Shown one piece after another: positions 1,161 through 21,973 of a stretch of DNA of 32,000 nt. A model generated the notes under the pieces. The model worked only from the letters and a program-made list of their open reading frames with translations, made no database searches and had not been told where the DNA came from. The DNA lies in contig JAEEVF010000006.1 of assembly GCA_016290775.1 (NCBI GenBank), positions 51,990-83,989 of the forward strand, given 5' to 3'. The stretch comes from Acetatifactor sp. GTDB taxonomy: Bacteria; Bacillota; Clostridia; Lachnospirales; Lachnospiraceae. Within the stretch, counting starts at the first letter, position 1. Each line of letters opens with the position of its first letter. A program made the position numbers and the translations under genes.

Positions 1161-4100
1161 ATGAAAAAGCAAATGAAAAGAAATTGGAGCCGAGTGATCG
1201 CGTTCGTGCTGTCCGTCGTGATGGTTCTTGGCATGGCCATGGAATTTGGGCCGATCCGCGCACAGGCTGCAACGGGACCGAAGATCGCGCAGTGGAACCT
1301 GTTGATCACGGAAGGCGCCATCGGACTGAACCTGTATTTTTCCGGGATCAGTGATTCGGACGCAGTTAGCATGACGGTGAAGGTGGACGGCACGTCCCAC
1401 AAGCTTGGGGCAAAGCAGGCGGACGGGACTTACGGCATTTCCCACCGCGTGATGGTAAAGGATGTTTTCAAGCAGCTGTCCGTCAGCCTTTACAAGGGAT
1501 CGACGAAGGTGAACCTTACAAACGGGAAGGCAGTAAACGGCAGCATATCCTGTTCCGTGGGCGATTACCTTGAACTGATCAAGGACATGGATGACATAAA
1601 CGGCAAGATCGCAAGGCCGCTCATCAATTACGCGACGTGCGCGGGCAATTACGCCAACGGCACCTCGCTCCCCGTGAGCCTTGAAAACGCGGACCTTTCC
1701 GCATACGCGCCCCAAAAGGGAGGGGAACTGCCAAGCTGTATCACGTGCGTGGGCAGTGAACTCGTTCTCACGGACACCTTTGCGATCCGCCATTACTTCC
1801 AGTTTACGGAGGTCGTAACGGACGGGGAGATGTACGTGGACGGCCAGCCGGCCACCTTCCATGAGACGGACACCCTTGGACTCATTTACGTGGAGATTTC
1901 TGACATCCGCGCGTGGGACATTGACCATGCCTATGAGTTCGTTGGAAGGGCAAAGGGCAAGGTATTTACTTTGAAGTACAGCGTGCTGTCCTATGCATAT
2001 CTGGCTCTTAAGAATGGCAGTAACGACAGCCTTGCACAGCTTGCAACCAGCATCTACTGGTATAAGGAAGGCTTTGAGGAGTGTCTTGAGGAGCTTGGGG
2101 GCGGTGGCCAAGGCGGACAGACCACGACGGAAACCTTGGATTACATGAACAGCAAATATACGCTGGACATGCCGAAGGTCGTGATCGTCAAGCCAGCCAC
2201 TCCTACTGAAGAGGAGAATTATTCCGCAAACTTGCTTCAGAAGTACATTGAGGCAGAGGACGGCTACAAGCCACAGATCATTGATGATTCCGTGACGAAG
2301 GGCTCTCAGGGCTTTGAGATTTCGGTCGGAAACACGAAGAGACCTCACGGTACGGCGAAATATACCTCAAATGACAGTTATTCCATTAAGTCTTACGATG
2401 GCGGCATTTCGATCACCGGCATTGGCAAGCTAGGCCTGATGCATGGCGCAATGCGCTTCCTCGAGGCCTTTGGCGGATATTATTATCTGTCCTGGAATGA
2501 TCTTTACCTGACCAATCAAAAGCACTTTAAGTATGAGACCTCCGGGATCAGCATTGATTATGAGAGGCCGTTCCTGTTCACTGACATGGACATCTGCTTC
2601 TCAAGCATCAATCCCAACGGCGACCTTACGGATCCCTATTATGGTAAGGGCAAGCCCAGCGGCTATGAGCCGCCCAGAACGGGGCGTCTTTTCTCCCTTG
2701 CCTTTGGCCTGAACGGTTTCTATGCGGATACCTACTGCCTTCCCAAGTCGGAAGCAGGTCGTGAGACTTGGTATCTGACCGGAAATAAGAGCGGGTCGTA
2801 CGGTTCCGAGACTCCCATCGAGGGCCTCGCAGCTGGTCAGGCTCACACATTGACGGCAGAGTTCATGCTTGCACAGGATTATTATGACAAGCACCCGGAA
2901 TGGTTTGCCGCATATGTATGGAATGATAAAGAAGAGCTGAAAAAGCCAGATTCGGAAAGAAAGAGAACCAAGGAGCAGCTTTGCCCGTACATGCTTTTGC
3001 ATGATGAGAATGCCTATAAGATCATATTGCAGCACTGCTATGACGAGATCGCGAACGGCTATGATCCCAATGCGCCGATCCAGATCATTTCCGTCTCTAA
3101 AAACGACGGCGACAAGCTTTGCATGTGTTCTTATTGCATGAAGGACAGGATTGCGCATGGGGACAGCGGCGGAATGTATGAATCCATTGAATATGTTCAG
3201 CTGCTCAACAAGCTGTCAGAGGATATTCATGCTGGCGGCAAGTACCCGAACCTTTATCTTGACATGCTTGCATATGAGTGGACCGTTGAGGCACCCGGAG
3301 ACATCGTTTGTGACGACCACGTGATCGTACGCTGGGCGCCGATCAGAAGGTGCTATGGTCATTATCTTAATGAAAAGGACCACATTACAAACACGAAGTA
3401 TTACAACGAACTTGTGAAGTGGACGAAATGCTGCAAGCATGTGTGGATCTGGGATTATAACAGTAACTTCATGACGACGGCGGGACCCTATGCGAACATA
3501 GACGTAATGCAGCATGACTTAAAGCTTTACAAGGAGCTCGGCGTGGAAGGCGTTTACCTGCAGAGCAATTCGAGACATCTGGAGTCCAATTCGGAGTTTG
3601 GCGATATCCGTAACTACATTGAAGGCAGGCTTCTTCAGGATCCTACTAGGGACTACGAGCAGGAACTTGCGTTCATCACGGATGCTCTCTATGGCAAGGC
3701 TGGGGTTTACGTGCGTGAGTACATGAAGCGCATGGAAAAGCAGGCGAAGAGTCATCATACGGTCGTAAGTCACAGGGATGACGTCTACATGTATGACAGA
3801 ACCTTGTATGACGTCTATGCAGGCGTGCACTCGTGGAGCGGAAAGAAAGTGATAGACGGACGGATGCCGGATGTAGAAATTGGGTATTGCGAAGGTCTTT
3901 GGAATGAAATCAAAAAGATTGCAGCGGGAGAATCCGCTGACGTCCAAAAACGCATTAACCGTCTTGAACTTGGCTGGCGTTTAGTGAAATCTACTTTAAA
4001 CGTATATGAATTTGGCGATCCGTCAACCTACAAAGCTCAAAACGAGCTCCTGATCAAGGATATGAAGGCGGCAGGTGTTACGTTCTTTTCTGCGATCAGT

Positions 4101-4286
4101 GCAAAAACAATAGACGGTTGCACGCTTCCGCAGAACCACCCGGACAACTGGTATCCGACTAAAAACGATGACGGTTCGTGGAATACCAGTGACAGAACGA
4201 TTGGCACGTTTACGAGCACAAATCCCGGAACGACGGCCAAGCCTGCGATCCCCGAGAATTTGTTCTACTATTACAAACAGCCATAA
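1161..4286 (+). CDS. Large secreted protein (~1040 aa). The C-terminal two thirds resemble DUF4838 / GH20-like glycan-active proteins; the N-terminal ~330 aa are unknown.
   Basis: ATG 1161 follows AAGGAAAGGA. The N-terminus MKKQMKRNWSRVIAFVLSVVMVLGMAMEFGPIRAQA looks like a signal peptide. A GGGGQGGQTTT linker is present. Later segments (WDYNSNF, CMCSYCMKD) recall DUF4838-type enzymes from memory only. The 418-aa antisense ORF 1092-2348 is a shadow. Confidence 0.7.
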   Translation: MKKQMKRNWSRVIAFVLSVVMVLGMAMEFGPIRAQAATGPKIAQWNLLITEGAIGLNLYFSGISDSDAVSMTVKVDGTSHKLGAKQADGTYGISHRVMVKDVFKQLSVSLYKGSTKVNLTNGKAVNGSISCSVGDYLELIKDMDDINGKIARPLINYATCAGNYANGTSLPVSLENADLSAYAPQKGGELPSCITCVGSELVLTDTFAIRHYFQFTEVVTDGEMYVDGQPATFHETDTLGLIYVEISDIRAWDIDHAYEFVGRAKGKVFTLKYSVLSYAYLALKNGSNDSLAQLATSIYWYKEGFEECLEELGGGGQGGQTTTETLDYMNSKYTLDMPKVVIVKPATPTEEENYSANLLQKYIEAEDGYKPQIIDDSVTKGSQGFEISVGNTKRPHGTAKYTSNDSYSIKSYDGGISITGIGKLGLMHGAMRFLEAFGGYYYLSWNDLYLTNQKHFKYETSGISIDYERPFLFTDMDICFSSINPNGDLTDPYYGKGKPSGYEPPRTGRLFSLAFGLNGFYADTYCLPKSEAGRETWYLTGNKSGSYGSETPIEGLAAGQAHTLTAEFMLAQDYYDKHPEWFAAYVWNDKEELKKPDSERKRTKEQLCPYMLLHDENAYKIILQHCYDEIANGYDPNAPIQIISVSKNDGDKLCMCSYCMKDRIAHGDSGGMYESIEYVQLLNKLSEDIHAGGKYPNLYLDMLAYEWTVEAPGDIVCDDHVIVRWAPIRRCYGHYLNEKDHITNTKYYNELVKWTKCCKHVWIWDYNSNFMTTAGPYANIDVMQHDLKLYKELGVEGVYLQSNSRHLESNSEFGDIRNYIEGRLLQDPTRDYEQELAFITDALYGKAGVYVREYMKRMEKQAKSHHTVVSHRDDVYMYDRTLYDVYAGVHSWSGKKVIDGRMPDVEIGYCEGLWNEIKKIAAGESADVQKRINRLELGWRLVKSTLNVYEFGDPSTYKAQNELLIKDMKAAGVTFFSAISAKTIDGCTLPQNHPDNWYPTKNDDGSWNTSDRTIGTFTSTNPGTTAKPAIPENLFYYYKQP

Positions 4287-4305
4287 ACCACAACAAGCCA
4301 TAAAC

Positions 4306-4350
4306 AAAAACGGGGCTGGCCAGATGAAAGTCTGGTCGGCCCTGTTTTTG
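4306..4350. terminator. Bidirectional intrinsic terminator between convergent genes
   Basis: AAAAA-CGGGGCTGGCCAGA-tgaaag-TCTGGTCGGCCCTG-TTTTT. A ~14-bp stem (a few wobble pairs or mismatches) is flanked by an A-run and a T-run. Confidence 0.6.
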
Positions 4351-4397
4351 CATTGGCACGCATCTGGTGATATGGAGTTTAATAAGTGAATGAAGCC

Positions 4398-5519
4398 TTA
4401 CTTTAAGGCATAGGAGATTTCGAAGGCATTTCCTTGCACCGTTGCGGTCGCCATCGCACCGGATATGATGGAGATCTGCGGCGGCAAATGTCCGATGTCA
4501 AGGTCGAAGAGAATTGGAACGTTCATGTCACCAAGCATGTGGAGTGCGGCCTGCTGGCAGGTGAGTCCCATGAAAGGTTCTTTTCCGAAAAGGGGACGGC
4601 CAAAAAGGAAAGCTTTCGTGTTTCGGAACCATCCCGCATTCTTGAGTTGCCAAAGGCCACGCAAAATGCTCAAGGGATTGAGATCGCAGGATTCCAAAAA
4701 GAAGATGGTTCCGTCGGCATCATATTTTTTCGTAAATTCCACGGTCTTGTCAAACTTCGTCCCGCAAAGGCAGCAGAGCACATCAAGACAGCCACCCAGC
4801 ATGCGACCCGTGACGGAAAGCGCAGGGGCATCGCCAACGGAAAGTGCCTGGCCGTAAGCAGCAGAAAGTGCTTGGCCGTCAGCCTCGGAAGGCGCAGGTC
4901 CATCGCCCGTATAAAGCTTGCCGTTCACATATACAGACATGGCAAAGGGCTCCGTGCAGTTTAACGTTGCGGTCGGGTTTTCAGGCGTTGCAAGGCTTTC
5001 CTTCTCCCAGGAGTCATAATTTGTGAACCTAAGTTTTTCGCCGCGAAGGAGGGCCAAGGCATCCTCAAGATAGGGATGCAAAGGCTTTGTTCCAAAGGAG
5101 CCTGCATTTGGGCCGTATATGGCGGCAATGTCGCAGATCGTGGGCAGCGTATAGGTCAGGCAGGTGTTGTCTGAATAACCCATAAACCATTTGGGCTTAG
5201 AAGCCTTGATGCGCTCAAAATCGACAAATTCCAGATCTTCGCACATGGTCTCGCCGCCACCGACGGAGAGCACGGCATCACACCGATCTCCCGCAAGGAA
5301 GTCATTGATCTCAGCGCCGCAACGCTCAGGTGTCGAGCTCTTGCCAATGCCTTCTTCAAGATAAACGCAAGGACCGACTTCAGCAGCAAACCCTGCACCC
5401 TCAAAGAAGCGAAGCGCTTCCTGAAATCTTGTGTGATAAGGCTCTAGCGACCCGCAGCCAAAGCTCGGCGCGATAAAACCCAGTCTGCTCTTTTCGTGAA
5501 TAAACTCAGGATATCTCAT
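4398..5519 (-). CDS. LD-carboxypeptidase / MccF-like serine peptidase (MEROPS S66)
   Basis: Contains GFIAPSFG, the nucleophile motif GYSDNT, LESCD and GHLPP (Ser-Glu-His triad pattern of S66). The start is set at MRYPEF (ATG 5519) because AGGAGG lies upstream; the ORF-track start at 5537 lies on top of that SD. Confidence 0.8.
   Translation of the reverse strand: MRYPEFIHEKSRLGFIAPSFGCGSLEPYHTRFQEALRFFEGAGFAAEVGPCVYLEEGIGKSSTPERCGAEINDFLAGDRCDAVLSVGGGETMCEDLEFVDFERIKASKPKWFMGYSDNTCLTYTLPTICDIAAIYGPNAGSFGTKPLHPYLEDALALLRGEKLRFTNYDSWEKESLATPENPTATLNCTEPFAMSVYVNGKLYTGDGPAPSEADGQALSAAYGQALSVGDAPALSVTGRMLGGCLDVLCCLCGTKFDKTVEFTKKYDADGTIFFLESCDLNPLSILRGLWQLKNAGWFRNTKAFLFGRPLFGKEPFMGLTCQQAALHMLGDMNVPILFDLDIGHLPPQISIISGAMATATVQGNAFEISYALK
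4816..4887 (-). repeat. Three imperfect in-frame 24-bp tandem repeats inside the S66 peptidase gene
   Basis: Units 4840-4863 and 4864-4887 match at 19 of 24 nt by eye; a more degenerate third copy lies at 4816-4839. They encode ADGQALSA / AYGQALSV / GDAPALSV. Confidence 0.7.
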
Positions 5520-5672
5520 AGCCCCTCCTAAATTCAAAATGTCTTTTATTCATCGTATCACAGAAAGGCTGATACCTCAATCCGAAACCGTGTTTTCTTT
5601 GGATTCATTATATTTCTGAAATGGTCACTTTACACGCTGCACGATGCGTGCAGTATCGTGCGCAGTCCTTCC

Positions 5673-16990: not shown

Positions 16991-17030
16991 AAAAAGAAGG
17001 CATTTCGGTCGGAACCGAAATGCCTTTTGT
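16991..17030. terminator. Bidirectional intrinsic terminator between dnaB and the convergent ferredoxin gene
   Basis: AAGGCATTTCGG-tcggaa-CCGAAATGCCTT, flanked by an A-run upstream (a T-run on the minus strand) and TTGTGTT downstream. Confidence 0.75.
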
Positions 17031-17048
17031 GTTGCGCGCGTTACGGAA

Positions 17049-17219
17049 TTATTCCTCTTCGATCGTACCAACGGGGCACTGACCTGCGCATGCGCCGCAG
17101 CTGATGCACTTATCAGGATCGATCTCAAACTTACCATCGCCCATGCTGATCGCACCAACGGGGCACTGAGCCTCGCAAGCACCACAAGCTACGCAATTAT
17201 CACCAATTTTGAATGCCAT
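17049..17219 (-). CDS. 2x[4Fe-4S] clostridial-type ferredoxin (56 aa)
   Basis: MAFKIGDNCVACGACEAQCP...CISCGACAGQCP contains two CxxCxxCxxxCP motifs. AGGAGGA SD before ATG 17219; the longer ORF-track start at 17300 has no SD. Confidence 0.9.
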   Translation of the reverse strand: MAFKIGDNCVACGACEAQCPVGAISMGDGKFEIDPDKCISCGACAGQCPVGTIEEE

Positions 17220-17308
17220 AATACATATCCTCCTTCTACTCATGCGACAAGCAAATGCTCGTTCATAAATTATAATATTATAAGTTGTTATCAATTTCAA
17301 TAAAAATT

Positions 17309-17324
17309 TGATAAAATTTTATCA
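17309..17324. promoter_or_regulatory. Perfect 16-nt palindrome TGATAAAATTTTATCA overlapping the pflA stop codon, upstream of the ferredoxin promoter region
   Basis: Read directly from the sequence. On the minus strand, TTGAAA-17-TATTAT follows about 10 nt downstream. Half-sites TGATAAA/TTTATCA are Fur/PerR-like, but the spacing is not the canonical 7-1-7. Confidence 0.3.
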
Positions 17325-18089
17325 CTGGTGGGTGATCCCAAGCTCTTCACGACGCTTTTTGATACCGCGAAGGATTGCCGCCTTCTTGTCGAGAAGCTTG
17401 TCCTTATCCATGGGGGGAACGCCCTTTAAGCGGTATTCCATGCCGAGCTTTTCATATTTGCTCTCACCCATGGTGTGGTAGGGCAGTACGTCAAGGGCCT
17501 TTAAGTTGTGGAACTGGCCGATAAAATACCCCAGCTTTTCCAGGTAAAACTCATCGTCGGTAAGGCCGGGAACCACCACGTGACGGATCCACATGTCCAC
17601 GCCCTTCTCGTCGAGATAGGCCGCGAATTTCAGGATGTTCTCATTGGGCTGTAAGCAAAGCTCTTTGTGCTTTTCCGGATCGATATGCTTGATGTCGAGC
17701 ATTACCAGGTCCGTCAAGGTCATGAGCTTGTCAAACTTTTCCATGAGCGGCGCGTTGTTCGGGTTAAAGGCAATGCCGGACGTATCCAGGCAGGTGTGGA
17801 TGCCTTTTGCCTTTGCGAGGGAATATAACTCGATCAGAAAATCAATCTGCATCAGAGGCTCGCCGCCGGTGGTCGTGATGCCGCCGCCGTTTTGATAAAA
17901 AGGCGCGTTGCGCTCATATTGCTCGATGATATAGGATGCCTCCATGGGCGTGCCTGCATTCATTTCCCAGGTGTCGGGATTGTGGCAGTAGGCGCAGCGC
18001 ATGGGGCAGCCCTGAAAGAACACGACAAAGCGTGTGCCGGGGCCGTCTACGGTTCCAAAGCTTTCCAAAGAGTGGATTCTTCCAAGCAT
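17322..18089 (-). CDS. pflA: Pyruvate formate-lyase activating enzyme (radical SAM)
   Basis: MLGRIHSLESFGTVDGPGTRFVVFFQGCPMRCAYCHNPDTW contains the CxxxCxxC radical-SAM cluster motif in the PflA-typical context. Length is 255 aa. Confidence 0.93.
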   Translation of the reverse strand: MLGRIHSLESFGTVDGPGTRFVVFFQGCPMRCAYCHNPDTWEMNAGTPMEASYIIEQYERNAPFYQNGGGITTTGGEPLMQIDFLIELYSLAKAKGIHTCLDTSGIAFNPNNAPLMEKFDKLMTLTDLVMLDIKHIDPEKHKELCLQPNENILKFAAYLDEKGVDMWIRHVVVPGLTDDEFYLEKLGYFIGQFHNLKALDVLPYHTMGESKYEKLGMEYRLKGVPPMDKDKLLDKKAAILRGIKKRREELGITHQ

Positions 18090-18125
18090 GTTGTCCTCAT
18101 TTCCGTGCGTTCTTTACGCACTTTT

Positions 18126-18159
18126 CAAAAACGGCATGGCCCCTAGAGACCATGCCGTC
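18126..18159 (-). terminator. Intrinsic terminator/attenuator after the glycyl-radical mini-gene, upstream of pflA
   Basis: The minus-strand transcript reads ACGGCATGG-tctctagggg-CCATGCCGT-TTTTGAAAAG. Confidence 0.55.
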
Positions 18160-18188
18160 TTGTTTGTTATGCCGGTATTCCTTGAGTA

Positions 18189-18431
18189 TTAGATGGACTC
18201 ATGGAAGGTACGGGAGATAACGTCTGCCTGCTGCTCGGGAGTGAGCTTGATGAAGTTTACAGCGTATCCGGAAACGCGGATCGTCAGCTGAGGATACTTC
18301 TCAGGGTTCTTCTGAGCGTCCAGAAGGGTCTCTCTGTTAAGAACGTTTACGTTCAGGTGGTGGCCACCCTTGGTTGCGTAGCCATCCAGTAAGTTAACCA
18401 GGTTGTCAACCTGTGCTTTAGATGCTGCCAT
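18189..18431 (-). CDS. Free-standing glycyl-radical domain (80 aa): the detached C-terminus of PFL, GrcA/YfiD-like
   Basis: [80 protein letters not shown] carries the RVSGYAV glycyl-radical signature and aligns to the last ~80 residues of E. coli PflB (from memory). It has its own AGGAGG-N8-ATG. Confidence 0.85.
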
Positions 18432-18454
18432 TGTTTTTTCCTCCTAATTTTCTA

Positions 18455-18661
18455 TTATTTGTAATCGTCTAAGCCTTGGTGAAGAGTCGGAACACTGCAT
18501 GCCAGGGGAGTTCTGGAACAATCCGTGCATCCCATGGTCTGAACGGTCTTGGATTGATCCGCCTGTGCCTCGTCAGTGTCGACGTTCACGTGGCCTACGC
18601 CGTTTGCAAAGCCTTCATCCAACATTTTTACAAGATCGTCAATCTTCTTTTGATCGTCCAT
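18455..18661 (-). CDS. 68-aa Cys-containing mini-protein between the PFL core and the glycyl-radical domain; function unknown
   Basis: AGGAGG-N8-ATG at 18661 (the ORF track starts 9 nt earlier, at a GTG inside the spacer). Sequence: MDDQKKIDDLVKMLDEGFANGVGHVNVDTDEAQADQSKTVQTMGCTDCSRTPLACSVPTLHQGLDDYK. The N-terminal ~23 residues resemble [23 protein letters not shown] of the next cistron. No RVSGY motif. Confidence 0.5.
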   Translation of the reverse strand: MDDQKKIDDLVKMLDEGFANGVGHVNVDTDEAQADQSKTVQTMGCTDCSRTPLACSVPTLHQGLDDYK

Positions 18662-18693
18662 TGGTTTCACCTCCTGACCAATATATAGTTTTA

Positions 18694-20733
18694 TTATTTG
18701 TTGAGATCTACTTCGATGTCGCCGGCGAATACCTTATCCTCTTTACCAAGAGCGCCAGGGATGATGGTGAAGGTATTGGAGATACCATCCTGTGCATCAT
18801 TGAAGGGCAGCTTGGATACGGAAGACAGGGATGCAACTGCACCGTGGCTGTCACGGCCGTGCATGGGGTTAGCACCAGGAGCGAAAGGCTGGCCCTTACG
18901 ACGTCCGTCAGGCGTATTACCGGTAGCCTTACCATAGGTAACGTTAGAGGTAATGGTCAGAATGGAAGTGGTAGGGAAGCCATCTCTGTAGGTGTGATGT
19001 CTTCTGATAGCGGTCATGAACTTGTGAACGATGTCCTGAGCGATCTCATCAACACGGTCATCATCATTACCATACTTAGGGAAGTCACCAGTGGTCTTGA
19101 AGTCAACGATGATGCCATCCTCGTCACGGATCACTTCAACCTTAGCATACTTGATTGCGGACAGGGAGTCTGCAACGATGGAAAGACCAGCGATACCGGT
19201 TGCGAAATATCTGCGAACGTCTCTGTCATGAAGAGCCATCTCTGCTCTCTCATAGCAGTACTTGTCATGCATGTAGTGGATGATGTTCAGGGTGTTAACG
19301 TAAACGTCTGCCTGCCACTCGATCATATCCATGAACTTGTCGTAAACATCCTGATACTCAAGAACGTCACCGGTTACAGGACGATACTTAGGACCTACCT
19401 GCTTCTTGGTTACTTCATCGATACCACCGTTCAGAGCGTACAGTAAGCACTTAGCCAGGTTAGCACGAGCGCCGAAGAACTGCATTTCCTTACCGATTCT
19501 CATGGAGGATACGCAGCAAGCGATGCCGTAGTCATCACCATGGGTTACTCTCATCAGGTCGTCGTTCTCGTACTGGATGGAAGAGGTCTGGATGGACAGC
19601 TTCGCGCAGTATCTCTTCCAAGCTTCAGGAAGTCTGGTGGACCAAAGAACGGTCAGGTTGGGCTCGGGTGAAGCGCCCAGGTTGGTCAGGGTGTTCAGGT
19701 AACGGAAGCTCATCTTGGTTACCATGTGTCTGCCGTCAACGCCAACGCCGCCGAGGGACTCGGTTACCCAAACGGGATCGCCTGCGAAGATCTGGTTGTA
19801 CTCAGGAGTACGAGCAAACTTGATGCAACGAAGCTTCATGATGAAGTGGTCAACGAACTCCTGGATCTGCTCCTCGGTGAAGGTGCCGTTAGCCAGGTCA
19901 CGCTCAGCGTAGATGTCAAGGAAGGTAGAGGTACGGCCAAGGGACATTGCAGCACCGTTCTGCTCCTTAACTGCGCACAGATATCCGAAGTAAGTAGCCT
20001 GAATTGCTTCCTGAACGTTGGTTGCAGGATTGGAGATGTCGCAGCCATAGGATGCAGCCATTTCCTTCATCATCTTCAAAGCAACGATCTGCTCGGAGAT
20101 CTCCTCGCGAAGACGGATCACGTCATCGGTCATTACGCGGCCGGTGGAATCCTTCTGCGCCTGCTTGTCCTCGATCAGTCTGTCGATACCGTAAAGAGCA
20201 ACTCTTCTGTAGTCGCCAATGATACGGCCACGGCCATATGCATCAGGAAGACCGGTGATGATGTGGGAAGAACGGCAAGCTCTCATCTCTGCGTTGTAAG
20301 CATCGAAGCAACCTGCGTTGTGAGTCTTTCTGTGAACGGAGAAGAACTCGGAGATCTCAGGATCTACTTCATAGCCGTTGTCAGAGCAAGCCTTCTCTGC
20401 CATACGGATACCGCCGTAAGGCTGAAGGGAACGCTTGAAGGGCTTGTCAGTCTGGAAGCCTACGATGGTCTCCTTGCTCTTGTCAAGATATCCAGGGCCG
20501 TGAGAGGTGATGGTGGAGATAACCTTGGTGTCCATGTCAAGAACGCCGCCGGCTTCTCTTTCCTTCTTCTGAAGATCAAGAACCATGTTCCAAAGGTCCT
20601 TGGTGTTCTGGGTGGGGCCGGCCAGGAAGGACTCATCACCGTCATAGGGATGATAATTTCTCTGGATGAAGTCACGAACGTTAACTTCCTTGTCCCACTT
20701 GCCACGTACAAAATCTGTTTCAATTGGTTTCAT
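18694..20733 (-). CDS. pflB: Pyruvate formate-lyase (formate C-acetyltransferase) catalytic core, lacking the C-terminal glycyl-radical domain
   Basis: PFL-typical sequence throughout, including the active-site Cys pair in [12 protein letters not shown]. It ends ...[25 protein letters not shown]-stop, whereas full-length PFLs continue for ~80 residues through RVSGY. AGGAGG SD sits 9 nt before ATG 20733. Confidence 0.92.
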
Positions 20734-20779
20734 TGCGAAATGCCTCCTCTTATAATATTTTTGGAATGAATGAATGGTT

Positions 20780-20807
20780 AAAATTGTCAGATTTTATCGA
20801 CAATTTT
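20780..20807. promoter_or_regulatory. Inverted repeat AAAATTGTC-N10-GACAATTTT in the pflB leader (candidate operator or weak leader hairpin)
   Basis: 9-nt perfect arms at 20780-20788 and 20799-20807. It lies between the predicted -10 and the pflB SD. Confidence 0.3.
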
Positions 20808-20827
20808 GCGCTTCTAATTCTACTGTC

Positions 20828-20856
20828 ATTATATTGAAAACAAGGGTTACAGTCAA
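20828..20856 (-). promoter_or_regulatory. Near-consensus sigma-A promoter for the pfl operon
   Basis: The minus strand reads TTGACT (20856-20851), 17-nt spacer, TATAAT (20833-20828), about 95 nt upstream of the pflB ATG. Confidence 0.6.
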
Positions 20857-21002
20857 GGTGGTTGGGTGTCCTTTTTTAAATACAAAATACAATGTTCACG
20901 AACGTTCCCACTTGCAATCACGTAAAAATCATGATACGATATTTCACGACTTAAAAAAGCAAGATTCCGGCCATTGGCCGTGTTTGAAAGGAGTAAAGAA
21001 TC

Positions 21003-21194
21003 ATGACAGGTATCACGAAAGAGATGACGATCGGCGAGATCCTTCGCAAGAGCCCTGAAGTGGCTCCCGTTTTGTTAGAGGCAGGCATGCATTGCCTTGG
21101 ATGTCCTTCCGCACAGGGCGAATCCATTGAGGAGGCTGCGCTGGTGCATGGCATTGACATTGACGAGCTGATGGCAGCCATCGAGCAGCTTTGA
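21003..21194 (+). CDS. DUF1858 / hybrid-cluster-protein-associated redox disulfide domain protein (63 aa)
   Basis: [49 protein letters not shown] contains the CxxC motif in the characteristic DUF1858 context. AGGAG SD. Confidence 0.85.
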
Positions 21195-21233
21195 TCTGCT
21201 CCGGCGACCTGCGCAAAACAAGTAAAAAGAAAC

Positions 21234-21270
21234 AAGCCCTGGATGCCGGAGCATTCAGGGCTTTTCTTTT
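21234..21270. terminator. Bidirectional intrinsic terminator between the DUF1858 gene and convergent mecA
   Basis: AAGCCCTG-gatgccggagcatt-CAGGGCTT followed by TTCTTTTG. The minus strand reads ...CAGGGCTTGTTTCTTTTT. Confidence 0.7.
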
Positions 21271-21283
21271 GTTATTGAGTTTT

Positions 21284-21973
21284 TTAGTTTGCCAGATTCT
21301 GTATGCAGTTGGAAGCCATGATGGTTTCACAATGCTCCTTGAGGAAGATCTCGCTGATGCCGCCGCGCACCACCTTGCCGTACTCGGAGAGCACGTTGCA
21401 AAGCCTGCCGTAATCCTCCGGCGTGGCCTCGCCCTTACTGATGGTGAGCAAATACTGGTCCTTTTTTGTGTCCTTGTAAAGTGCGGTAGGGCATGGGCAG
21501 GCACTCCCGATCTGGGATGCCGCGTCCATAACTTCGGAAATCGAAGAAAAGACAAAGATGCGGGTGGGGCGCGCCGGATCGTCTGGCACGGGCTCCTCCT
21601 TTAATTGCTCGGCGAAGGGACGCAGGCGATCCTGCAATTCTTCGTCATAGCCTTCAAAGTCATCCCCTTCCTCGTAGGAGTCGTTGCTTGGCGAGAACCG
21701 CGCAAACCGCGTGTCCAGCTCCTCGGGATCCTCCACCTTCGTGATCAGGAGCACTACGCACTCCGCGTTCATGGGAATGGCTTCTATCATCAGGGGAATG
21801 TCTTCCGCCTCGAAACCAAATTCAAAATTGGCCTGCTGCATCATCTCCCGAAAGAGGCGTTTGGCCTTTTCGGTGCCATATGCAAGCTCGCTCAGCTTGA
21901 GCTGGCGGCTGGCCAGATCTTCTTTTGTCAAGGTGCAGCGAATCTGATTATCATTGATCTTTTCAATTTTCAT
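21284..21973 (-). CDS. mecA: Adaptor protein MecA (ClpC/ClpE adaptor)
   Basis: MKIEKINDNQIRCTLTKEDLASRQLKLSELAYGTEKAKRLFREMMQQA is the typical MecA N-domain, followed by an acidic linker and a C-terminal domain. The start is chosen at ATG 21973, 8 nt after GGAAGG. Confidence 0.85.
   Translation of the reverse strand: MKIEKINDNQIRCTLTKEDLASRQLKLSELAYGTEKAKRLFREMMQQANFEFGFEAEDIPLMIEAIPMNAECVVLLITKVEDPEELDTRFARFSPSNDSYEEGDDFEGYDEELQDRLRPFAEQLKEEPVPDDPARPTRIFVFSSISEVMDAASQIGSACPCPTALYKDTKKDQYLLTISKGEATPEDYGRLCNVLSEYGKVVRGGISEIFLKEHCETIMASNCIQNLAN

Follow-up and report, generated by a model that had tools for sequence, protein, structure and literature searches.

A pyruvate formate-lyase gene divided between catalytic core and glycyl-radical domain in Lachnospiraceae, with a conserved third gene between the two parts

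How can a pyruvate formate-lyase (PFL) work when its catalytic cysteines and its radical glycine are encoded by separate genes? PFL is the archetypal glycyl-radical enzyme (GRE), and one of the main ways in which fermenters of gut and rumen turn pyruvate into acetyl-CoA and formate. The PFL-activating enzyme (PFL-AE) abstracts the hydrogen of Gly734 of PFL, and oxygen cleaves the PFL chain at the radical glycine. The question is raised by an operon on the minus strand of a 32-kb stretch of DNA from Acetatifactor sp., here called the window, to which all coordinates refer. An earlier note on this DNA had described a PFL of 679 amino acids (aa) without the radical glycine, along with a free-standing 80-aa glycyl-radical domain (GRD) encoded further downstream, and had proposed an enzyme of two polypeptides. 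Both pieces were found as described, the first with its Cys-Cys pair and the expected end (Table 1), but a 68-aa protein encoded between them had been overlooked, so that the pieces are three. We consider it probable that this split operon is the resident PFL of a large Lachnospiraceae lineage comprising Acetatifactor and its relatives, that it arose when a pflB gene was broken at the hinge joining barrel and GRD, and that the enzyme is made as three polypeptides.

The core is by homology a PFL. It was matched by the Pfam profile PF02901 over positions 3-647 of 647 (E = 5.6e-217), and against TIGR01255 it scored 1085.9 bits over profile positions 5-665 of 744, above the PFL equivalog cutoff of 994.2. 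The active-site cysteine pair (C418/C419 in E. coli) is kept within GIACCVSSM, residues 403-411, and this stretch is invariant across 14 close homologues of the core. A cognate radical-SAM activase is encoded by pflA, which scored 291.7 bits against TIGR02493 (cutoff 231.75) and starts about 100 nt 3' of the GRD gene. A GRD fingerprint in the same polypeptide is lacking, as the core ends at TIGR01255 position 665 of 744. The remainder of the profile is found in the 80-aa product. Of TIGR01255, the core accounts for positions 5-665 and the 80-aa product for 664-744. The Gly_radical Pfam profile, in a comparison suggested by the earlier note, is likewise divided, the core matching positions 1-51 and the 80-aa product 50-106. 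For both Pfam and TIGR01255 the coordinates of the two pieces abut to within one position. The 80-aa product aligns with residues 682-758 of E. coli PFL and the break falls at about E. coli residue 676-680, which agrees with the distance of about 58 residues before Gly734 that had been given. The abutting profile coordinates, along with the lineage-wide conservation described below, bear out the view that the gene was partitioned precisely and not truncated at random.

The GRD gene is a cistron of its own, as had been claimed. It is preceded by AGGAGG-N8-ATG and starts 262 nt past the core stop codon (about 260 nt in the earlier note), and the AGGAGG is found 5' of the GRD gene in 83 of 84 loci. 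After an N-terminus of about 7 variable aa the product carries the complete GRE fingerprint, RVxG[FWY]x6-8[FL]x4Qx2[IV]x2R, as defined in a 2026 review (PMC13450708), and RVSGYAVNF is invariant in the GRD alignment. It belongs to the NCBIfam family NF038360 (GrcA3), with 158.7 bits against a cutoff of 158 over positions 2-78 of 78, and not to TIGR04365 (GrcA), where it reached 103.7 bits against a cutoff of 170 over profile positions 65-126 only; the PDB alignment of the GRD to 6owr is confined to residues 66-127. As the GrcA3 model exists, a free-standing glycyl-radical protein of about 80 aa is not in itself new.

Among the closest known counterparts is GrcA/YfiD, a target of PFL-AE which, once activated, rescues in trans a PFL that O2 has cleaved (PMC8683613; PMC13450708). 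In function the split system would resemble GrcA together with such a cleaved PFL. GrcA/YfiD (TIGR04365) and T4 Y06I resemble the 80-aa GRD in being small free proteins with the PFL Gly loop and C-terminal helix which supply the radical in trans, and the identity between E. coli GrcA and the GRD is high over the last ~62 residues. GrcA is, however, 127 aa long, with a disordered N-terminus of about 60 aa, and starts at beta10, whereas the 80-aa GRD lacks the disordered region and has an extra helix ahead of beta10 (E. coli 682-694). Further, the partner of GrcA is a full-length PFL damaged by O2, whereas the partner gene here never encodes a GRD, hence the arrangement looks constitutive and not one of repair.

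The split is conserved far beyond the window, in hundreds of Lachnospiraceae species of gut and rumen. Scanning one genome per GTDB species for the middle protein gave at least 572 genomes, and among 80 loci drawn from these and inspected the order core-middle-GRD was found in all, in most cases with pflA and the ferredoxin gene behind it. The ten contexts retrieved via the exact GRD sequence all had a 68- or 69-aa gene and the same order, and distant members, with 32-46% identity in the middle protein, show the same arrangement wherever the contig covers the neighbouring genes. Clustered at 90% identity, 4368 proteins group with the core and 4179 with the GRD, and cultured carriers include Acetatifactor muris DSM 23669, strains D16-50 and 1xD42-87 and Lachnospiraceae 526-35. 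The pairwise ratios of non-synonymous to synonymous substitutions (dN/dS), with synonymous sites near saturation, came to 0.048 (core), 0.055 (GRD), 0.058 (pflA) and, highest of the four, 0.098 (middle gene). The split is thus conserved, and core, GRD and activase are under strong purifying selection, two points that the earlier note had wished to see examined. The idea that it is an assembly or sequencing error, or a strain-specific decaying pseudogene, has nothing on its side except how frequent frameshift errors are in metagenome-assembled genomes (MAGs) generally, and with the same architecture in hundreds of independent assemblies, cultured isolates included, we give it practically no credence; a continuous pflB broken by misreading, which would have overturned the reading, is excluded.

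The same loci show how far the three cistrons are independent of each other. The two intergenic spacers range over 14-271 nt and 2-397 nt, and all relative frames of the cistrons occur, about equally often. The ribosome-binding site of the middle gene is weaker and more variable than that of the GRD gene, and in some distant lineages the middle ATG overlaps the core stop codon by 8-14 nt, which is the usual sign of translational coupling. These data bear on the alternative that a single chain is restored after all, by a group I or II intron, by frameshifting or bypassing, or by split-intein trans-splicing. Precedents can be named, since a group I intron interrupts T4 nrdD, which itself encodes a glycyl-radical enzyme, and 'fractured genes' joined by split inteins are reported (PMC2677866). 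At this locus, however, the Rfam scan of 17000-21500 gave no intron or other relevant RNA at E <= 1, and Pfam detected no intein or Hint domain in the locus products. The flanks consist of the 12-aa core tail and about 7 variable aa at the GRD N-terminus and hold no conserved Cys, Ser or Thr nucleophile; the intervening DNA is a coding gene under purifying selection between spacers of variable length and in random frames, and a separate Shine-Dalgarno sequence and ATG serve each of the cistrons. We regard rejoining as very improbable, and splicing, which had been named as a possible refutation, as excluded. Conservation, frames, spacers, selection and the lack of introns and inteins together leave error, decay, splicing, recoding and trans-splicing either excluded or very unlikely.

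Two variations of the locus were seen. In L008, L013, L015, L026, L052 and L065 pflA and the ferredoxin gene lie 2-5 kb 3' of the GRD gene, separated from it by other DNA, with the core-middle-GRD unit intact. In one distant lineage an extra 94-aa open reading frame (ORF) with two C-x-x-C pairs and a hydrophobic C-terminal segment stands between the GRD and activase genes (L090 1203-1487, L091 833-1117).

The 12-aa tail of the core, behind the last PFL-homologous residues, follows the motif hydrophobic-hydrophobic-x-G-D/E, then hydrophobic at alternate positions. It is kept in every related locus that covers the core end, and in a variant form in the distant split loci, hence we take the tail to be functional and not mere read-through. 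A 751-aa member of the core cluster turned out to be an over-extended N-terminal gene call, and its end is still ...DLNK. Within the last 285 aa of the core the sole universal signature of the split form is Tyr509 (window ~19207-19209, minus strand), present in 68 of 68 split PFLs including the distant ones and nearly absent from the fused PFLs compared, where Thr or Trp is mostly found; from its distribution it is a candidate adaptation to assembly in trans.

Further we asked where the split gene came from. The window reads GdpP, L9, DnaB, then on the opposite strand fdx-pflA-GRD-middle-core, then DUF1858 and MecA. A Lachnospiraceae MAG (L086) is syntenic with it, having PFL-pflA-fdx-MerR-DnaB-L9-GdpP with a single fused PFL, and another locus (L087) has a fused PFL-pflA-fdx. 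The shared synteny with fused pflB relatives makes the split gene an ortholog of housekeeping pflB. This is also where the spare-part explanation has to be weighed, namely that the 80-aa protein repairs an intact PFL encoded elsewhere, and that the 679-aa gene is a truncated paralogue, non-functional or re-purposed. The database labels point that way: 'autonomous glycyl radical cofactor GrcA', and rad_fix_GrcA3 in NCBIfam, a family whose name implies a spare part and to which the 80-aa product belongs; and intact PFLs do occur in other Lachnospiraceae. The core, however, stands at the chromosomal position where relatives have their single fused pflB-pflA-fdx, and it shows low dN/dS, a preserved Cys-Cys loop, the codon bias of a highly expressed gene and the conserved tail. 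A spare part is defined by a full-length partner, whereas the adjacent core is without a GRD in every locus covering the core end, and the GRD lacks the N-terminal region of ~60 aa found in GrcA and starts exactly where the core ends. When 5.8 billion proteins were searched with a chimera spanning the core-GRD junction, the fused PFLs recovered were at most 79% identical and mostly contig-end gene fragments, against 88-99% identity for split relatives. We therefore find the spare-part explanation improbable. Within the 32-kb window there is no further copy of a PFL, GRD or middle gene, and, in keeping with what had been said of the locus itself, no intact PFL C-terminus. Purifying selection, positional orthology and the lack of an intact C-terminus in the window leave assembly of core and GRD in trans as the only economical reading, which is the part of the two-polypeptide proposal that stands.

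The fused relatives also indicate how the split may have arisen. The fused PFLs P0283 (L086 1-756), P0299 (L087 1-852), P0391, P0392 and P0393 all carry a variable insert of 25-40 aa exactly at the split site, without a middle gene. In P0283, P0299 and P0391 the insert opens with a (V/I/L)F(A/S)... motif like that of the core tail, the insert regions reading ...GKNSDLFSDNIDAEI... in P0283, ...GKSDEIFADSISKDL... in P0299 and ...GKSDEIFAESISRDS... in P0391. These inserts show that the hinge between barrel and GRD tolerates expansion and is a permissive, enlarged site in this part of the family, and the fission would have happened at this hinge; the fused PFLs with hinge inserts are probably the ancestral or sister state. 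In a rough neighbour-joining tree the split clade of the window stands beside the hinge-insert clade and the distant split forms are placed apart, the 112 columns used being too weak to order fission and fusion. The insert of P0283 is rich in cysteine (ICGDCGCGDSIC) and was considered as a homologue of the Cys motif of the middle protein; this was dropped, the inserts of the other fused relatives being unrelated.

The middle gene, a conserved 68-aa ORF, lies in the 262-nt gap between core and GRD genes. A search of 5.8 billion proteins gave 1720 relatives of its product, counted as clusters at 90% identity, and among the matches listed they are 'hypothetical proteins' of ~67 aa from Lachnospiraceae or Acetatifactor; at 50% identity the family has 219 representatives among 1.84 billion proteins, nearly all of 60-90 aa. 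The family is strongly acidic, with a median net charge of -8. An N-terminal module at about residues 2-33, I-D-D-L-V-x-M-L-D...G-x-G-H-x-N-V, is followed by a variable acidic linker of 14-36 residues in a 112-sequence alignment (visibly longer in some outlying members) and then by the C-terminal motif V-x-T...D47-C48-x6-A54-C55-x-V57-P58-T59-L60-x-x-G63-h-D65. Of the 112 sequences, 90% or more have C48, and the same holds for A54, C55 and P58, while the C-x6-C spacing is kept in 88; a third cysteine, C45, is conserved among close relatives only. No split-specific cysteine able to partner C48 or C55 was found in the last 285 aa of the core.

The middle protein is in part related to the GRD. 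With hhalign its residues 2-33 were homologous to GRD residues 3-34 (probability 96.5%, E = 1e-9), the shared region being the helix corresponding to E. coli 682-694 and the barrel strand beta10 (HLNVNV). The homology ends at residue 33; hhalign found no likeness to the Gly loop in the C-terminal half, and the 112-sequence alignment contains no RVxG-like radical motif. Searches of Pfam, PHROGs and NCBIfam gave no significant family match, and a PDB profile search gave no relative; the weak matches were to the N-terminal regions of GrcA3 and Gly_radical. The residues kept in the middle module (L-x-x-L-D and G-x-G-H-x-N-V) are those kept in the GRD, from which we infer that the middle protein would fit the same socket of the core. 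Codon usage was expressed as the fraction of 'preferred' codons, these being derived from the core gene itself. The core reached 0.687 and the GRD, with a similarly strong bias, 0.671; pflA had 0.519, and the middle gene, at 0.462, is like ordinary genes, the other genes of the window giving 0.41-0.55. The order is unchanged when loci are pooled. By this measure the GRD looks abundant and stoichiometric with the core and the middle protein looks less abundant, which suggests that it is made at lower levels than the other two. Tentatively, and with somewhat less than even confidence, we suggest that the middle protein is a GRD surrogate in the core socket, acting as a cap, an eviction factor or a redox gate.

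Two further observations concern the middle protein. The Gly loop of a GRD normally faces the Cys loop of the core, and middle residues 53-60 (18494-18517, minus strand), (P)LACSVPTL, resemble core residues 404-411, (G)IACCVSSM, in the common pattern hydrophobic-A-C-x-V-x-x-hydrophobic; this might be mimicry, or equally chance over 8 residues. P0153, P0132, P0131, P0146, P0148 and P0248, unusually long matches to the profile of the middle protein, were considered as fusions with PFL and rejected. They have unrelated N-termini joined to its exact C-terminal motif (...CSRTPLACSVPTL...) and are probably chimeric metagenome assemblies or mis-called starts.

How the pieces would act together we can only propose. 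One operon would give three separately translated products, the core, the GRD and the 68-aa protein. The hydrogen of Gly55 would be taken from the GRD by PflA, for which the ferredoxin of the same locus is the likely electron donor. With its helix and beta10 the GRD would then sit in the core, held by no covalent bond, and thereby complete the 10-stranded barrel, setting Gly55 against Cys406/407, and catalysis would then follow as in ordinary PFL. As the radical-bearing part is a separate small protein, damage by O2 would destroy only an 80-aa piece, abundantly made and exchangeable. The weakest part of the scheme concerns the 68-aa protein, a docking module without Gly loop that might bind the core socket as a surrogate; it could then hold the empty core, help to evict damaged GRD, or gate occupancy through its two conserved cysteines.

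An engineered counterpart exists in E. coli, where tPFL(1-695) together with truncYfiD(61-127) gains a low level of glycyl radical (Andorfer et al. 2021, PMC8683613). The two systems are alike in that the barrel lacks beta10, Gly loop and C-terminal helix and a minimal piece of GRD makes up for them. In the engineered pair, however, binding is too weak to detect and activation is poor, whereas the natural break lies ~16-20 residues further upstream and the natural system adds the conserved core tail and a third protein. These three features would be likely adaptations for efficiency.

Several points weigh against the three-polypeptide enzyme. In E. coli PFL truncated before beta10, YfiD binding was undetectable by isothermal titration calorimetry and activation was 32-fold lower than with O2-cleaved PFL (PMC8683613); for assembly in trans to be efficient, this lineage would thus have to possess adaptations of its own, of which the tail and the middle protein may be examples. 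The AlphaFold model of the core, built on a 14-sequence alignment, reached a confidence (pLDDT) of only 34. The middle protein modelled alone from 112 sequences is mostly unstructured (pLDDT 69, with a confident helix at residues 3-19 only), although this would also be consistent with folding on a partner. The role ascribed to it is drawn from N-terminal homology, gene position and codon usage, and the whole system is so far known in these organisms from its genes.

In other glycyl-radical enzymes, small subunits suggest a different role for the middle protein. HPAD gamma, BSS beta/gamma and MASS beta/gamma/delta are likewise small Cys-containing proteins encoded beside the catalytic subunit, and BSS-beta touches the GRD and restrains its movement (PMC13450708). 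The split could then be real and the middle protein act outside the GRD socket, as an adaptor that brings the GRD or the core to PflA (in E. coli a task of the disordered GrcA N-terminus), a metal or redox subunit like those just named, or a thiol radical quencher. For this speak the control of GRD movement by such subunits (PMC13450708) and the two near-invariant cysteines with C-x6-C spacing (88 of 112) along with an invariant proline; also, in E. coli YfiD acquires its radical efficiently only with its disordered N-terminus (PMC8683613), and the 80-aa GRD has no such disordered region. The known small subunits, however, resemble HiPIP or rubredoxin and hold Fe or Fe-S at four-ligand sites, whereas the middle protein has two family-wide cysteines, no four-ligand Cys or Cys3His motif, an N-terminus paralogous to the GRD, and no likeness in sequence or fold to those subunits by PDB profile search or AlphaFold model. 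The conserved residues of its N-terminal module match the GRD helix and beta10 and thus point to the core socket. A role outside the socket seems to us possible but rather unlikely.

Returning to the surrogate in the socket, its most developed form is a three-component radical enzyme with a consumable GRD, where a 68-aa GRD mimic, with a Cys loop replacing the Gly loop, manages the exchange. Here we remain doubtful. The mimic may cap empty or O2-exposed cores, evict cleaved GRD stubs and/or sense redox through C48/C55. If this is true, what is an emergency 'spare part' in E. coli would have become a constitutive design with its own exchange factor.

The literature we searched, which left most subscription journals outside its coverage, holds no description of a naturally split PFL, of truncation in a GrcA3 partner or of the middle protein, and the names GrcA3 and GrcA2 occur in no paper of it. 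A June 2026 review lists small subunits for HPAD, BSS and MASS only, with PFL absent (PMC13450708). Hence a lineage-wide constitutive fission of a housekeeping PFL with a GRD-mimicking accessory protein appears to be undescribed, and the 68-aa protein would be the first accessory protein associated with PFL, unlike the Fe-S subunits of BSS, HPAD and MASS. In public databases the three products are labelled 'formate C-acetyltransferase', 'hypothetical protein' and 'autonomous glycyl radical cofactor GrcA'; about 4,000 entries under these labels would belong to one enzyme system, and metabolic reconstruction and metaproteomics of Lachnospiraceae should treat the three jointly. The GRD has to leave the barrel for activation (PMC13450708). 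A widespread natural split PFL would be a test system for GRD exit and re-entry and for the action of the activase on free or docked GRD. It also bears on the efficiency of trans-complementation and on the cost of O2 damage to anaerobes. For the design of glycyl-radical enzymes that tolerate oxygen, a radical cofactor that is modular and can be replaced is an attractive prospect.

The features of the operon are collected in Table 1. The order of a terminator followed by pflA agrees with what had been described; the first hairpin has a folding energy (dG) of -25.5 kcal/mol and a z of -5.92, and none of 200 shuffled sequences was equally stable.

Table 1. Features of the split PFL operon, in window coordinates
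Feature	Position	Strand	Remarks
Promoter-like TTGACT-17-TATAAT	20856..20828	-	5' of core gene; 11/12 consensus positions; consensus match only
PFL catalytic core, 679 aa	20733..18694	-	PFL-like barrel, Cys-Cys loop C406/C407, no radical glycine
Core C-terminal tail, 12 aa	18732..18697	-	3' of last PFL-homologous residues GKEDK; followed by TAATAA
Middle cistron, 68-aa acidic protein	18661..18455	-	AGGAGG-type ribosome-binding site; no Pfam model
Free-standing GRD, 80 aa (NCBIfam GrcA3)	18431..18189	-	Helix, strand beta10, Gly loop RVSGY with Gly55, C-terminal helix
Terminator-like hairpin and U-run	18161..18127	-	Ends core-middle-GRD transcription unit
pflA, radical SAM PFL-activating enzyme, 255 aa	18089..17322	-	TIGR02493
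2x[4Fe-4S] ferredoxin, 56 aa	17219..17049	-	3' of pflA
Second terminator-like hairpin	17026..16997	-	3' of ferredoxin gene

In gut bacteria we also came across a different PFL, P0271 (L093-L096, ~3380-5609), whose reading frame is interrupted by a TAA in place of the Lys in ...SAIKYA[K]VKPIRDENG. The TAA is clear in L096 at ~4971-4973; L093 and L094 have masked bases nearby, and in L095 the upstream part is called as two ORFs. The interruption is found in independent assemblies that are ~97% identical in DNA, and P0271 may be a pseudogene, a case of readthrough or recoding, or another PFL in two pieces.

Divergent from the pfl promoter lies the gene of a 63-aa DUF1858 protein (21003-21194, plus strand) with a C-x-x-C motif (MHCLGCP). 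The gene is at the equivalent position in 8 of the 10 contexts retrieved via the GRD and further upstream in one more, and a redox link of its product to the PFL system is possible.

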